From: Escherichia coli
GTDB taxonomy: Bacteria; Pseudomonadota; Gammaproteobacteria; Enterobacterales; Enterobacteriaceae
DNA length: 64,000 nucleotides
Assembly: GCF_041886205.1 (NCBI RefSeq)
Contig: NZ_CP169029.1
Reading direction: 5' to 3' (one strand)
How positions within the stretch are numbered: position 1 is the first letter of the stretch; each line of letters begins with the position of its first letter. The notes under the pieces are model-generated. The model ran no database searches. It was not told the origin of the DNA and saw only the letters and a list, made by a program, of their open reading frames with translations. The position numbers were made by a program, and so were the translations under genes. This document shows positions 2,990 to 39,480 of the stretch, piece after piece.

Positions 2990-4389
2990 ACACTCGCCAG
3001 CTATTGAGCGTCGGTATCGATATCGGCACCACCACCACCCAGGTGATTTTCTCCCACCTGGAACTGGTTAACCGTGCGGCGGTGTCGCAGGTGCCGCGCT
3101 ACGAATTCATCAAACGCGAAATTAGCTGGCAAAGCCCGGTGTACTTTACCCCTGTCGATAAACAGGGTGGTTTAAAAGAAGCGGAACTGAAATCGCTGAT
3201 TTTAGAGCAATATCAGGCTGCGGGCATTGCGCCGGAAAGCGTTGATTCTGGTGCCATCATCATCACCGGTGAAAGCGCGAAAACCCGCAATGCTCGCCCG
3301 GCGGTGATGGCGCTCTCTCAATCGCTGGGGGATTTTGTCGTTGCCAGCGCCGGGCCGCACCTCGAATCCGTGATCGCCGGTCACGGAGCCGGGGCACAAA
3401 CCCTTTCTGAACAACGGCTGTGTCGGGTACTGAATATCGACATCGGCGGTGGCACCGCGAACTACGCCCTGTTCGATGCCGGAAAAATCAGCGGCACCGC
3501 CTGCCTCAACGTCGGTGGTCGCCTGCTGGAAACCGACAGCCAGGGGCGCGTGGTTTACGCTCATAAACCGGGGCAGATGATTGTGGATGAGTGCTTCGGT
3601 GCAGGCACTGACGCCCGTTCGCTGACCGGCGCGCAGCTGGTGCAGGTTACCCGGCGGATGGCGGCGCTGATTGTCGAAGTGATTGACGGAACGCTTTCGC
3701 CGCTCGCGCAGGCATTGATGCAAACCGGTTTGCTGCCCGCAGGTGTTACGCCCGAAATCATTACGCTTTCTGGCGGCGTGGGCGAATGTTATCGCCACCA
3801 GCCCGCCGACCCGTTCTGTTTTGCCGATATTGGCCCACTTCTGGCAACGGCGCTGCATGACCATCCGCGCCTGCGTGAGATGAATGTGCAGTTTCCAGCG
3901 CAAACCGTACGCGCCACGGTGATTGGCGCGGGTGCACATACCCTTTCGCTCTCTGGCAGCACAATCTGGCTGGAGGGCGTACAACTGCCGCTGCGCAATT
4001 TGCCGGTGGCGATCCCAATTGATGAAACGGATCTGGTGTGTGCCTGGCAACAGGCGCTGATTCAGCTGGATCTTGATCCTAAAACTGACGCGTACGTGCT
4101 GGCGCTTCCCGCCTCGCTGCCTGTGCGTTACGCCGCGGTACTGACGGTCATCAACGCGCTGGTCGATTTCGTCGCGCGTTTTCCGAATCCGCATCCCCTG
4201 CTGGTGGTGGCCGGGCAGGACTTTGGTAAAGCTCTGGGCATGTTGTTGCGCCCACAGCTACAACAACTCCCGTTGGCAGTCATTGACGAAGTGATTGTCC
4301 GCGCGGGGGACTATATCGACATTGGTACGCCTCTTTTTGGCGGATCGGTTGTGCCGGTGACGGTGAAATCACTCGCATTTCCTTCCTGA
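2986..4389 (+). CDS. eutA: Ethanolamine ammonia-lyase reactivating factor EutA
   Basis: 467 aa; ATGA overlap with eutH stop; synteny. Confidence 0.9.
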   Translation: MNTRQLLSVGIDIGTTTTQVIFSHLELVNRAAVSQVPRYEFIKREISWQSPVYFTPVDKQGGLKEAELKSLILEQYQAAGIAPESVDSGAIIITGESAKTRNARPAVMALSQSLGDFVVASAGPHLESVIAGHGAGAQTLSEQRLCRVLNIDIGGGTANYALFDAGKISGTACLNVGGRLLETDSQGRVVYAHKPGQMIVDECFGAGTDARSLTGAQLVQVTRRMAALIVEVIDGTLSPLAQALMQTGLLPAGVTPEIITLSGGVGECYRHQPADPFCFADIGPLLATALHDHPRLREMNVQFPAQTVRATVIGAGAHTLSLSGSTIWLEGVQLPLRNLPVAIPIDETDLVCAWQQALIQLDLDPKTDAYVLALPASLPVRYAAVLTVINALVDFVARFPNPHPLLVVAGQDFGKALGMLLRPQLQQLPLAVIDEVIVRAGDYIDIGTPLFGGSVVPVTVKSLAFPS

Positions 4390-12447: not shown

Positions 12448-13431
<984 letters not shown>

Positions 13432-13449
13432 GCGTTTCTGATTCGATGA

Positions 13450-13490
13450 TGAAAGGCCAGGCAGTAACATTACTGACTGGCCTTTTTATT
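13450..13490. terminator. Bidirectional intrinsic terminator between convergent yfeX and yfeW
   Basis: Hairpin AGGCCAG...CTGGCCT flanked by A- and T-tracts. Confidence 0.6.
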
Positions 13491-25993: not shown

Positions 25994-27721
25994 TTAGCAG
26001 ATTGTTTTTTCTTCAATGAACTTGTTAACCAGCGTCATTAACTCGTCCGTTGTCGGTTGAGCAAGAGCCTGCTCTGCTAACACCTTCGCATCTTCGAAGT
26101 TCGTGTTACGGATAATCTTCTTAATGCGCGGGATAGAAATGGCGCTCATAGAGAATTCGTCCAGACCCATCCCCAGCAACAGAAGTGTAGCACGTTCATC
26201 GCCAGCAAGCTCACCACACATGCCAGTCCATTTGCCTTCAGCATGAGAAGCATCAATAACTTGCTTGATCAAGTTCAGCACGGACGGTGACATTGGCTGG
26301 TAAAGGTGTGAAATCATATCATTACCACGGTCAACTGCCAGAGTGTACTGCGTTAAATCATTGGTGCCGATACTAAAGAAATCAACTTCTTTGGCTAAAT
26401 GACGTGCAATTGTTGCGGCAGCCGGTGTTTCCACCATTACGCCGATTTCAATTGACTCGTCAAACGCTTTACCTTCGTCGCGCAGTTCCTGTTTGTAGAT
26501 TTCAATCTCTTTGCGCAGTGTACGCACTTCTTCAACAGAGATGATCATCGGGAACATAATGCGCAATTTACCGAAAGCCGAGGCACGCAGGATAGCGCGG
26601 AGCTGATCGCGCAGGATCTCTTTACGATCCATCGCGATACGGATAGCGCGCCAGCCGAGGAACGGGTTCTCTTCTTTCGGGAAGTTCATGTATGGCAGCT
26701 CTTTGTCGCCGCCGATGTCCATGGTACGAACGATAACCGCCTGCGAGCCACACGCTTCAGCCACTGCTTTGTAAGCAGCAAACTGTTCTTCTTCAGTGGG
26801 CAGCGCGTCGCGGTCCATGAACAGGAACTCAGTACGATACAGACCAACGCCTTCAGCGCCGTTACGCTCTGCACCTTCAACGTCACGAACCGTACCAATG
26901 TTAGCGCACACTTCTACCTGGTGACCGTCCAGCGTAATAGCTGGCAGATCTTTCAGTTTAGCAAGCTCTGCTTTTTCAGAAGCCACTTGCTCCTGAACAG
27001 CGCGCATTTTATCAATAACTTCGTTGGTTGGATTGACGTAAACCTGATTATTTACGGCATCCAGAATCAGATAGTCGTCATTTTTCACCTGAGAGGTGAC
27101 GCTACCGGTACCCACGATAGCAGGCAGTTCCAGAGAACGCGCCATGATAGAGGTGTGGGAAGTACGGCCACCCGCGTCGGTGATGAAACCCAGCACCTTC
27201 TTCAGGTTCAGCTGTGCGGTTTCGGACGGCGTCAGGTCAGCGGCAACCAGAATGACTTCATCCTGAATGGCGCTCAGGTCGATAATCTTCAGGCCCAGGA
27301 TGTTGCGCAGCAGGCGCTTACCGATATCACGTACGTCAGCCGCACGTTCTTTCAGGTATTCATCATCCAGCTCTTCCAGGGCAGAAGCCTGACCTTCGAT
27401 AACTTCATGAGCAGCTGCGTCAGCTGTCATGTGCTTATCTTTAATCAGGGCTATGATTTCCTGCTCCAGCTCCTCATCTTCGAGCAGCATAATATGCCCT
27501 TCAAAGATGGCTTCTTTTTCTTCACCGAACGTTTCACCAGCTTTCGTTTTGATCGTTTCCAGCTGGGCTGATGCCTTGGCACGACCGCTCAGAAAACGTT
27601 CAACTTCCTGATCAACCTGGTCGGCAGAAATTTTTTTCCGGTCAATGACAATTTCGTCTTCTTTCAGAAGCAGAGCTTTACCGAAAGCGATACCCGGGGA
27701 TGCTAAAATGCCTGAAATCAT
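25994..27721 (-). CDS. ptsI: PTS Enzyme I (PEP-protein phosphotransferase) PtsI
   Basis: 575 aa; recognised sequence. Confidence 0.97.
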
Positions 27722-34930: not shown

Positions 34931-35857
34931 ATGAATTATTCTTTAAAACAATTAAAGGTTTTCGTCACAGTAGCGCAGGAGAAAAGTTTTAGTCGTGCAG
35001 GAGAGCGTATCGGCTTGAGCCAGTCGGCAGTAAGTCACAGTGTGAAGGAGCTGGAAAATCATACTGGTGTTCGCCTGCTGGACAGAACCACGCGTGAAGT
35101 GGTGCTTACAGATGCAGGGCAGCAGTTGGCTTTGCGTCTTGAGCGACTGCTGGATGAACTTAACAGCACGTTGCGCGATACCGGGCGTATGGGGCAACAA
35201 CTGAGCGGAAAAGTTCGGGTCGCTGCCAGCCAGACCATTTCCGCGCATCTTATTCCGCAATGCATTGCTGAAAGCCATCGCCGCTATCCAGATATTCAGT
35301 TTGTCCTGCACGATCGTCCGCAGCAGTGGGTGATGGAAAGTATTCGCCAGGGAGATGTCGACTTTGGCATCGTCATCGATCCAGGCCCAGTGGGCGATCT
35401 GCAATGTGAAGCGATTCTTTCCGAGCCTTTCTTTCTGCTTTGCCATCGCGATAGCGCTTTGGCCGTGGAAGATTATGTACCCTGGCAGGCATTGCAGGGA
35501 GCGAAATTGGTGTTGCAGGATTACGCGTCAGGCAGCCGACCGCTGATTGACGCAGCGCTGGCGCGCAATGGTATTCAGGCGAATATTGTGCAGGAGATTG
35601 GACATCCGGCGACGCTGTTCCCGATGGTAGCCGCAGGCATCGGCATCAGTATTCTTCCCGCACTGGCGCTACCATTGCCTGAAGGTAGCCCACTGGTGGT
35701 AAAGCGCATTACGCCGGTTGTTGAACGCCAGTTGATGCTGGTGCGCAGGAAGAACCGTTCACTTTCCACCGCCGCTGAAGCGTTATGGGACGTGGTACGA
35801 GACCAGGGCAATGCGCTAATGGCTGGTCGGGAAGGGGATCCGTTGTATCAGATATAG
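34931..35857 (+). CDS. yfeR: LysR-family transcriptional regulator YfeR
   Basis: 308 aa; N-terminal LysR HTH. Confidence 0.82.
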
Positions 35858-36189
35858 ATATCGATATGAGTCGTTTTTTCAACAGGATTTAGAAGGGATA
35901 CATTCAGAGACAAACGCTGCTCTTTCTCCTGCGCCTTTTCTGCCTGCTGTTTCTGCAACTGCGCCAGTTGTGTTTCCAGTAGGGTGATTTGCTGTTGAAT
36001 CAATTCGGCCTGTTTTTGCTTGTCTTCAGCACTGCCGCTAGTGTCTACAATCTCTTTAATTTGTTGAGTGAGTTTGATGATTTGCTGACTTATCCGCGCG
36101 ATTTGTGAAGCAACATCGCTACCTTGTGATGCCCTGTTACTACTCTGTGTTTGTATGGAAGGAATTGAAGTTGAAGAGATAGTGGCCAT
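35848..36189 (-). CDS. FlxA-like small glutamine-rich coiled-coil protein (hypothetical)
   Basis: 113-aa ORF with GAGGA SD 7 nt upstream of ATG; Q/K/L/I-rich heptad pattern resembling FlxA-family proteins; sigma-28-like promoter upstream; 3' end overlaps yfeR by 10 nt. Confidence 0.55.
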
Positions 36190-36586: not shown

Positions 36587-36630
36587 ACTTCTCAATTTCT
36601 TGCTACACGGCGGAGACTACATAAAGTAGT

Positions 36631-36706
36631 TGGTGGGTGATGACGGGATCGAACCGCCGACCCCCTCCTTGTAAGGGAGGTGCTCTCCCAGCTGAGCTAA
36701 TCACCC
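36631..36706 (-). tRNA. valU: tRNA-Val (anticodon UAC)
   Basis: Identical copy; promoter-proximal. Confidence 0.93.
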
Positions 36707-36723
36707 CCGCTGTGTGGAGTCGC

Positions 36724-36751
36724 ATTATAGGGAGAGTTCAAAATGAGTCAA
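36724..36751 (-). promoter_or_regulatory. Sigma-70 promoter of the valU-valX-valY-lysV operon (TTGACT-N16-TATAAT) with GC-rich discriminator
   Basis: Near-consensus -35 and -10 hexamers about 17 nt upstream of the first tRNA. Confidence 0.6.
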
Positions 36752-36964
36752 CGCATTTTCTAAAGAAATTGTTCGTTCGTCGTAAATTTAAGCAAGATGA
36801 TCGCAAAACAGACCGTGTTGCGCAATTTGTCAACGAAAACAATAATGCGTAAGGTAGAAACCCGAACTACATTGAGGAATCAGGCGGGAGTGATAGAATA
36901 TCGCCCACTCAATTTTTCCAGGATTTGCCGGTTGTCGGCATCTTTCTAAACGTAAGGCCATTTC

Positions 36965-38380
36965 ATGAAAATCAAAACTCGCTTCGCGCCAAGCCCAACA
37001 GGCTATCTGCACGTTGGCGGCGCGCGTACTGCTCTTTACTCCTGGCTTTTTGCACGTAACCACGGCGGTGAGTTCGTGCTGCGTATTGAAGACACCGATC
37101 TTGAGCGTTCCACGCCGGAAGCTATCGAAGCCATTATGGATGGCATGAACTGGCTGAGCCTGGAGTGGGATGAAGGTCCGTACTACCAGACCAAACGTTT
37201 TGATCGCTACAACGCGGTGATCGATCAGATGCTGGAAGAGGGCACTGCTTATAAATGCTATTGCTCTAAAGAGCGCCTGGAAGCGCTGCGCGAAGAGCAA
37301 ATGGCGAAAGGTGAGAAGCCGCGTTATGACGGTCGCTGCCGCCACAGCCATGAGCATCACGCTGATGATGAACCGTGCGTTGTACGTTTTGCTAACCCGC
37401 AGGAAGGTTCTGTTGTTTTTGACGATCAGATCCGTGGTCCGATCGAGTTCAGCAACCAAGAGCTGGACGATCTTATTATCCGCCGTACCGATGGTTCCCC
37501 AACCTATAACTTCTGTGTGGTTGTCGATGACTGGGATATGGAAATCACCCACGTTATCCGTGGCGAAGACCATATCAACAACACGCCACGCCAGATCAAC
37601 ATTCTTAAGGCCCTGAAAGCGCCGGTGCCGGTTTACGCGCACGTTTCTATGATCAACGGCGATGACGGTAAAAAACTGTCCAAACGTCACGGGGCGGTCA
37701 GCGTAATGCAGTATCGTGATGACGGTTATTTGCCAGAAGCACTGCTGAACTATCTGGTGCGTCTGGGCTGGTCCCACGGCGATCAGGAAATCTTCACTCG
37801 TGAAGAGATGATCAAATACTTCACCCTGAATGCCGTCAGCAAATCTGCCAGTGCGTTCAACACCGACAAGCTGCTGTGGCTGAACCATCACTACATTAAC
37901 GCGCTGCCGCCGGAGTATGTTGCTACTCATTTACAGTGGCACATTGAGCAGGAAAATATCGATACCCGTAACGGCCCGCAGCTGGCTGATCTGGTGAAAT
38001 TGCTGGGCGAACGCTGCAAGACGCTGAAAGAGATGGCACAGAGCTGCCGTTATTTCTACGAAGATTTTGCTGAGTTCGATGCCGACGCCGCGAAAAAACA
38101 TCTGCGTCCGGTAGCGCGTCAGCCGCTGGAAGTAGTTCGTGACAAACTGGCCGCGATTACTGACTGGACCGCTGAAAACGTTCATCACGCTATTCAGGCG
38201 ACGGCGGATGAGCTGGAAGTGGGTATGGGTAAAGTTGGTATGCCGCTGCGTGTCGCCGTAACCGGTGCGGGGCAGTCTCCGGCACTGGATGTTACCGTTC
38301 ACGCAATTGGTAGGACCCGCAGTATCGAGCGTATCAACAAAGCGCTGGCTTTTATTGCTGAACGCGAAAATCAGCAGTAA
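36965..38380 (+). CDS. gltX: Glutamate--tRNA ligase (GluRS)
   Basis: 471 aa; class I HIGH motif (HVGGAR) and KMSKS-like KLSKR. Confidence 0.96.
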
Positions 38381-38395
38381 TTAGCGCATAAAAGA

Positions 38396-38430
38396 TAAAC
38401 GGCAGGAGATAATATCCTGCCGTTTTTTAT
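38396..38430. terminator. Bidirectional intrinsic terminator between convergent gltX and yfeD
   Basis: Hairpin CGGCAGGA...TCCTGCCG followed by T6. Confidence 0.7.
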
Positions 38431-38823
38431 TTATGCTGATTCGTCAATATCGAGACGGGCGAGGAAATTGCGAATTCCTTCACGTGACAAAAATTGCGCG
38501 ACTTTTTCCTGCTCAATGTCTGTCATATTATCTATCGCGTTGATGATTTGTCGATACGCCGGGGCGCGTGCTCCAGGAGCGTATTCAGCAATTCTCTCTT
38601 CAGCTTCCATCAACATCGGTGTGTTATGGAAGGCTGGCGTGTTCTGAATAAACTCGCAAACTTGCGTATCGACCAGAATAAGTCTGGCACGACCGCCTTT
38701 CACGCCGGGAAATTTTTCCGTTTTCCAGCCTTTTTCTCTGATCCAACGGTTAACAGTTTGTTTAGCCACACCGAGGCATTCAGCCAGTTCTTCGGTGGTC
38801 ATTTTATTGCGTAATCTTTTCAT
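38431..38823 (-). CDS. yfeD: Putative DNA-binding protein YfeD (DUF1323)
   Basis: 130 aa; paralogous to adjacent yfeC (shared motif QTVNRWIRE / QTINKWVRKEGW). Confidence 0.78.
   Translation of the reverse strand: MKRLRNKMTTEELAECLGVAKQTVNRWIREKGWKTEKFPGVKGGRARLILVDTQVCEFIQNTPAFHNTPMLMEAEERIAEYAPGARAPAYRQIINAIDNMTDIEQEKVAQFLSREGIRNFLARLDIDESA

Positions 38824-39404: not shown

Positions 39405-39480
<76 letters not shown>

Follow-up and report, generated by a model that had tools for sequence, protein, structure and literature searches.

A 366-codon open reading frame antisense to Escherichia coli gltX is very probably a shadow of gltX codon choice

The DNA analyzed here, called the window throughout, is a stretch of 64,000 nucleotides from an E. 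coli chromosome. Among 5,426 complete E. coli genomes, 5,425 match its region 36600-38400 (95-100% identity), with gltX and tRNA-Val genes annotated there, and the gene layout is that of the K-12 map (valU-valX-valY-lysV, gltX, yfeD, yfeC, alaW/X; Table 1). The gltX product carries the Pfam class I catalytic domain tRNA-synt_1c (E 2e-125) together with Anticodon_2. Opposite the first 322 codons of gltX lies a long antisense open reading frame (ORF), which continues past the gltX ATG for a further 135 nt (44 codons and a stop). The strand that encodes gltX is designated plus.

Table 1. Coordinates of the antisense frame, gltX and neighboring features, numbered along the window.
Feature	Position	Strand	Remarks
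tRNA-Val(UAC), first gene of the divergent tRNA operon	36631..36706	-	tRNA search, Rfam
valU-valX-valY-lysV promoter-like site TTGACT-16-TATAAT, near consensus	36724..36751	-	Consensus scan; gene names from K-12
Antisense ORF, very probably a shadow ORF	36830..37930	-	From the ORF list; ATG 37930-37928, TGA 36832-36830, 366 aa
135-nt tail of the antisense frame	36830..36964	-	Spans the promoter region and 5' UTR of gltX; stopped by an intergenic TCA (minus-strand TGA)
gltX promoter-like site TTGAGG-16-TAGAAT, TG upstream	36872..36899	+	Consensus scan only
gltX 5' UTR hairpin TGCCGG-TTG-TCGGCA	36926..36940	+	Kept in 25 Enterobacteriaceae sequences; one pair compensatory
gltX, glutamate--tRNA ligase (class I)	36965..38380	+	471 aa; real gene whose codon usage would create the antisense frame
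Sense codon 323, TTA (Leu)	37931..37933	+	Sole TTA/CTA/TCA in gltX; minus-strand TAA, the upstream limit of the antisense frame
Terminator-like bidirectional hairpin between gltX and convergent yfeD	38397..38425	.	Perfect 11-bp stem, T-runs on both strands
yfeD, convergent with gltX	38431..38823	-	Possible source of read-through antisense RNA

The surroundings of gltX include several points of strain variation. A gene for an FlxA-like protein (113 aa; 35848-36189, minus strand) lies between yfeR and lysV, where K-12 has xapR-xapB, and this segment next to the tRNA operon is strain-variable. On the other side of gltX, the window holds a single tRNA-Ala(GGC) gene (39405-39480) and is 115 nt shorter at that locus, whereas K-12 and strain 6EVA have a tandem pair (alaW, alaX) and three copies occur in one record. 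Recombination between tandem tRNA genes, changing their copy number, would fit this difference. Two-piece matches suggest that some strains differ in their tRNA-Val copies too, either in spacing or in number. Immediately upstream of gltX, conservation across 25 Enterobacteriaceae genera extends over the 5' UTR hairpin and the AACGTAAGGCCATTTCATG that follows it; farther upstream the sequence diverges fast.

The antisense frame is open from stop to stop, with a TAA (37933-37931) directly upstream of its ATG. Its codons are in exact register with those of gltX ((37928-36965) mod 3 = 0), sense position 1 facing antisense position 3, so that the only sense codons able to place a stop in the frame are TTA, CTA and TCA. 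These three are rare Leu and Ser codons that strongly codon-biased E. coli genes avoid. Among the 38 Leu and 19 Ser codons of gltX, TTA occurs once and CTA and TCA do not occur, CTG accounting for 30 of the 38 Leu codons. The first-pass annotation had described a 366-codon frame at 36830-37930 that extends 135 nt beyond the gltX start and into the promoter region, and both parts of this description hold: the frame is present in the ORF list, and 44 codons and a stop do cross the 5' UTR and the promoter region. The further statement that this is the longest antisense frame in the window is correct when frames are counted from a start codon. Measured from stop to stop, it gives way to a frame antisense to ptsI (26456..27568, plus strand), which has 371 stop-free codons in the ptsI codon register. 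Other antisense frames of 351 codons (3205-4257) and 321 codons (12523-13485), also measured from stop to stop, lie opposite other genes, and 10 of the 11 antisense ORFs of at least 200 aa in the window share the codon register of the gltX frame. Long in-register antisense frames are thus a general phenomenon in the window.

How far the antisense frame exceeds chance depends on the null model. Under the codon usage of 35 neighboring genes, 8.0 stops would be expected opposite gltX, the probability of one stop or none is 0.002, and that of a run of at least 322 codons is 0.008. Under the usage of ptsH, ptsI, crr and cysK the expectation falls to 5.3 stops, with corresponding probabilities of 0.026 and 0.049, so that the single stop-type codon of gltX stands at the low end even among biased genes. 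When the synonymous codons of gltX are permuted with its own codon counts retained, one stop is expected and a run of at least 322 codons appears in 61% of placements. Such a run is therefore a typical outcome under the codon counts of gltX itself, and these counts fully explain the openness of the frame. Moreover, the frame is the top case picked among approximately 55 genes, a choice that absorbs a probability of a few percent, and on that account it is no outlier. For the intergenic part, a run of 44 open codons has a chance probability of approximately 0.09 at the base composition found there.

The codon adaptation of gltX was scored with the CAI weights of Sharp and Li (1987). Its CAI of 0.565 is the second highest in the window, and the value obtained with Leu and Ser codons left out (0.576) is again the second highest, indicating a general bias that is not directed against antisense stops. 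The antisense frame itself has a CAI of 0.246, which is within the range of other shadow frames. Across the genes of the window, the relationship between CAI and the fraction of stop-type codons was weak and non-significant (Spearman -0.16, p=0.25) and was not used as support.

Signals for initiation and transcription were scored on the same strand as the frame. Anti-Shine-Dalgarno (SD) pairing in the 18 nt upstream of the antisense ATG amounts to -1.4 kcal/mol, compared with a median of -5.9 kcal/mol at the starts of 35 real genes in the window and of -2.7 kcal/mol over all ATG triplets. Among alternative in-frame starts, a GTG at 37891 scores best, with moderate SD pairing (-4.8 kcal/mol). 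A consensus scan found no minus-strand promoter-like site upstream of the ORF or inside gltX; the only minus-strand site that it returned is the one assigned to valU, which lies on the same strand as the frame, 79 nt downstream of the antisense stop. Codon-usage and RBS scoring had been suggested in the first-pass annotation as a check on the frame, and the CAI of 0.246 and the SD pairing of -1.4 kcal/mol both favor a non-coding reading.

To place the frame in its family, 80 gltX loci were taken from Enterobacteriaceae species representatives with GltX identities of 91-99%, of which 79 were analyzable, giving 80 sequences with the window included. The number of in-register stops per gltX ranges from 0 to 9 (mean approximately 2.4), the stops being scattered along the gene, and the antisense frame stays open across codons 1-322 in just 21 of the 80 sequences. 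Stop-type codons turn up in one orthologue or more at 30 different positions within this stretch. A break at codon 49 is common to many genera, TCA being present there in 29 sequences; in Salmonella the frame is broken either at codons 217, 260 and 304 or at codons 108 and 217, and in Escherichia sp. E1V33 it is stopped at codon 105. The intergenic extension likewise varies, from 0 to 123 codons among orthologues and from 0 to 6 in most genera. Where GltX identity to the window is approximately 95% (mean 94%), identity of the antisense frame is approximately 64-68% (mean 67%). Taken at the sequence level, these comparisons indicate that the antisense ORF is not conserved among gltX orthologues, and because its openness differs between genera, that openness is recent.

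Within E. coli, the first antisense codon is GTG and not ATG in K-12 and in five strains sampled across the identity range, the sense codon 322 being CAC in all of these and CAT in the window. The ATG of the antisense ORF is specific to the allele of the window. The E. coli comparison covered eight strains, with the window counted. The frame between its two stops is intact in the window, in K-12, in four of the five other sampled E. coli strains and in four of five Escherichia species representatives; the exceptional strain, E. coli CFSAN061770, carries extra antisense stops at codons 304 and 314.

Selection on an antisense protein would be expected to leave a trace in the variants that are silent in gltX. 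Twelve Escherichia sequences provided 134 distinct sense-synonymous single-base variants in codons 1-322, and 121 of these (90%) alter the antisense residue. Variants that are synonymous in the antisense frame numbered 11 in Escherichia, against 10.8 expected without selection (p=0.88), and 39 against 37.0 expected across the 80 sequences. By these counts, antisense residues change at the neutral rate and the antisense protein is not under selection. Variants introducing a stop into the antisense frame are depleted inside the ORF (2 observed, 7.8 expected), and equally so in the rest of gltX, which served as a control (1 observed, 5.7 expected); this matches the prediction from rare-codon avoidance. 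Stop-type codons are rarer inside the ORF, where they make up 3.2% of Leu and Ser codons, than outside, where they make up 5.0%.

Synonymous divergence is also lower inside the ORF than outside it (mean pS 0.50 versus 0.57). Antisense constraint was considered as a source of this deficit and rejected, as sliding windows confine it to gltX codons 1 to 40-60, and a tie to the ORF was rejected in turn, as lineages with a broken antisense frame show the deficit too when compared with each other. The pattern is best taken as a property of the 5' end of gltX and not of the ORF. Several features of this 5' end were recorded in their own right. At codons 1-45 (36965-37100), normalized codon entropy is 0.39-0.41 in 80 Enterobacteriaceae sequences, compared with approximately 0.6 elsewhere, and pS within Escherichia is 0.00-0.16, compared with approximately 0.3 elsewhere. 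Non-optimal codons are kept here (CTT28, TTT29, GAG36, ATT41 and GAT45), and the local CAI is not raised. A consensus fold of gltX from -65 to +136 shows little covariation (2 of 41 pairs).

The antisense translation has no match in Pfam at E<=1 and none among PDB sequences at E<=10, and the exact 366-aa product is absent from a collection of 15 billion proteins. A homology search of 5.8 billion predicted-protein clusters returned 14 sporadic matches at 49-68% identity, all of them from Enterobacteriaceae and all hypothetical or unnamed. In eight inspected E. coli records from RefSeq, of which seven are chromosomes and one is labelled a plasmid, neither the antisense ORF nor anything else on its strand opposite gltX is annotated. 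The predicted product is basic and hydrophobic (pI 10.1, GRAVY +0.12) and rich in Val, Arg, Phe and Ile, a composition that mirrors an acidic soluble protein.

Three of the records encountered in these searches deserve separate description. In the first (ENA ERZ15610034 NODE_1969), the antisense frame has been called as a 352-aa protein, P0001, from the GTG equivalent to 37891, and gltX has not been called; the gltX copy on this contig departs from the window sequence from approximately nt 1256, which suggests an indel or rearrangement. The second, P0014 (253 aa; ENA contig of 3,558 nt), has N-terminal amino-acid-permease Pfam domains, and near its C-terminus 48 residues (192-239) are 100% identical to residues 263-310 of the antisense frame. 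Its contig is probably a chimeric metagenome contig. The third, NZ_CP098226.1 (50 kb, labelled plasmid pZ0117EC0005-3), contains a 94.7%-identical copy of the xapR-tRNA-gltX-yfeDC-tRNA-Ala-pdeA region in which nearly all genes are frameshifted or have internal stops, and this copy probably stems from an error-rich assembly and not from a genuine gltX on a plasmid. The hypothetical proteins annotated on NZ_CP098226.1 were considered as possible antisense products and rejected, being same-strand fragments of the frameshift-ridden copy with no antisense annotation among them.

We consider it very probable that the antisense gltX frame is a shadow ORF, a by-product of gltX codon choice and not a gene, and we infer that no functional protein is translated from it. 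The first-pass annotation had likewise favored a shadow ORF produced by the codon bias of a highly expressed gene, a reading borne out by the codon register, the single stop-type codon, the CAI and the null model, which all agree. The lack of conservation, the neutral change of antisense residues and the absence of an SD or promoter-like site at the frame speak for it as well. Weighing against it are the low-end count of stop-type codons in gltX, the weak relationship between CAI and stop-type codon fraction, and the lower synonymous divergence and rarer stop-type codons inside the ORF. The proposed origin of the frame is simple. Under strong codon bias gltX would avoid TTA, CTA and TCA, retaining one among its 471 codons (the TTA at codon 323), and with a single stop-type codon the antisense frame stays open from codon 323 to the gltX start. 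Beyond that point the frame happens to run through 44 codons of 5' UTR and promoter region before reaching an intergenic TCA.

An alternative that concerns transcription, and not coding, is that gltX is traversed by a non-coding antisense RNA, which could stem from yfeC-yfeD read-through and would modulate expression of gltX or of the valU operon, the open frame being incidental. In its favor, the minus-strand genes yfeC and yfeD converge on gltX with only the 38397-38425 hairpin between them, a read-through transcript would head for the valU promoter on the same strand, and antisense transcription is described as widespread in E. coli (PMC2912661). Read-through from yfeC-yfeD is the one plausible source of such an RNA, and the hairpin would be the only barrier to minus-strand transcription entering gltX. 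That barrier, however, has a stem of 11 bp flanked on either side by T-runs and looks like a shared bidirectional terminator, effective both ways. Rfam matches in the region are limited to tRNAs, the consensus scan gave no antisense promoter-like site inside gltX, and a literature search found no report of an antisense transcript for E. coli gltX. On balance we regard an antisense RNA with such a role as unlikely, and even if it existed the ORF would still not be a gene.

A second alternative is a young, Escherichia-restricted overlapping protein-coding gene, expressed through low-level translation of an antisense transcript in the manner proposed for pop and ano of O157:H7. The stop-to-stop frame is indeed intact in K-12 and in most of the sampled E. 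coli strains and Escherichia representatives, the GTG at 37891 combines an SD pairing of -4.8 kcal/mol with the start of the metagenome call P0001, and translation of some long antisense ORFs is argued in PMC7103648, PMC9927249 and PMC8850804. Set against this are the neutral rate at which antisense residues change, the polymorphism of the start codon and N-terminus within E. coli, the stop at codon 105 in Escherichia sp. E1V33, the lack of a promoter-like site, the CAI of 0.246, and an openness that gltX codon counts account for in full. In addition, gltX is absent from the text and from 18 supplementary files of an E. coli overlapping-gene survey, and a literature search turned up no antisense transcript, ribosome footprints, protein or phenotype reported at E. 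coli gltX. An overlapping gene is accordingly very improbable in our judgment. Its most specific form seems less credible still: that the frame, most plausibly from the GTG at 37891, would be translated at a low level from yfeC-yfeD read-through RNA into a young, Escherichia-restricted, basic and hydrophobic protein, too recent for constraint to show. If translation were nonetheless true, a 1.1-kb overlapping gene would lie opposite an essential synthetase, and nothing here points that way.

The least probable reading, that the frame is a relic of a Rodin-Ohno bidirectional ancestral gene with a class II synthetase opposite a class I synthetase (a hypothesis argued in PMC4082485 and PMC3684856), can draw on the class I identity of GltX and on a frame that spans the codons of both signature motifs (HVGG, residues 16-19; KLSKR, residues 237-241), but it is effectively refuted for gltX by non-conservation within one bacterial family, with the frame broken at varying positions in close relatives, which argues for a recent and codon-driven rather than ancient openness, and with an antisense translation that matches no class II synthetase in Pfam (E<=1) and nothing in PDB (E<=10).

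The shadow ORF reading is of value chiefly as a negative result for annotation. For long frames opposite strongly codon-biased genes, length alone is insufficient for candidate-gene status. Quick discriminators are the codon register, the count of TTA, CTA and TCA in the sense gene, whether the frame is intact in relatives, and whether synonymous variants spare the antisense residues.

Three kinds of known or proposed antisense frames can be compared with that of gltX. First, Rodin-Ohno genes and the gltX frame are alike in lying antisense to a class I catalytic domain. The first-pass annotation had mentioned a literature on long antisense frames opposite class I synthetase genes, and the Rodin-Ohno literature does exist; it concerns, however, complementarity between class I and class II signature motifs in their ancestral consensus codons, and not long open frames of the present day (PMC4082485). 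The hypothesis neither predicts nor needs an open frame today, and the gltX frame has no detected class II similarity. Second, the antisense genes proposed in O157:H7, namely pop opposite ompA (PMC7103648), ano (PMC5960689) and three more (PMC9927249), resemble the gltX frame as long ORFs antisense to an annotated, well-expressed E. coli gene. Those candidates are reported to be backed by RNA-seq, ribosome profiling, mapped promoters and phenotypes, whereas the gltX frame fails the sequence-level tests of SD pairing, promoter, conservation and constraint. Finally, known shadow ORFs (frame -1; sas13 in OLGenie terms) share with the gltX frame the same register and stops limited to TTA, CTA and TCA. 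They are also alike in a length that follows from the gene's own codon counts, in being non-conserved and in having no initiation signals. We see no substantive difference between the two, and the window contains nine more such frames of at least 200 aa. The gltX frame stands at the long end of shadow ORFs because gltX is long (471 codons) and strongly biased, and because a 44-codon intergenic run is added to it.
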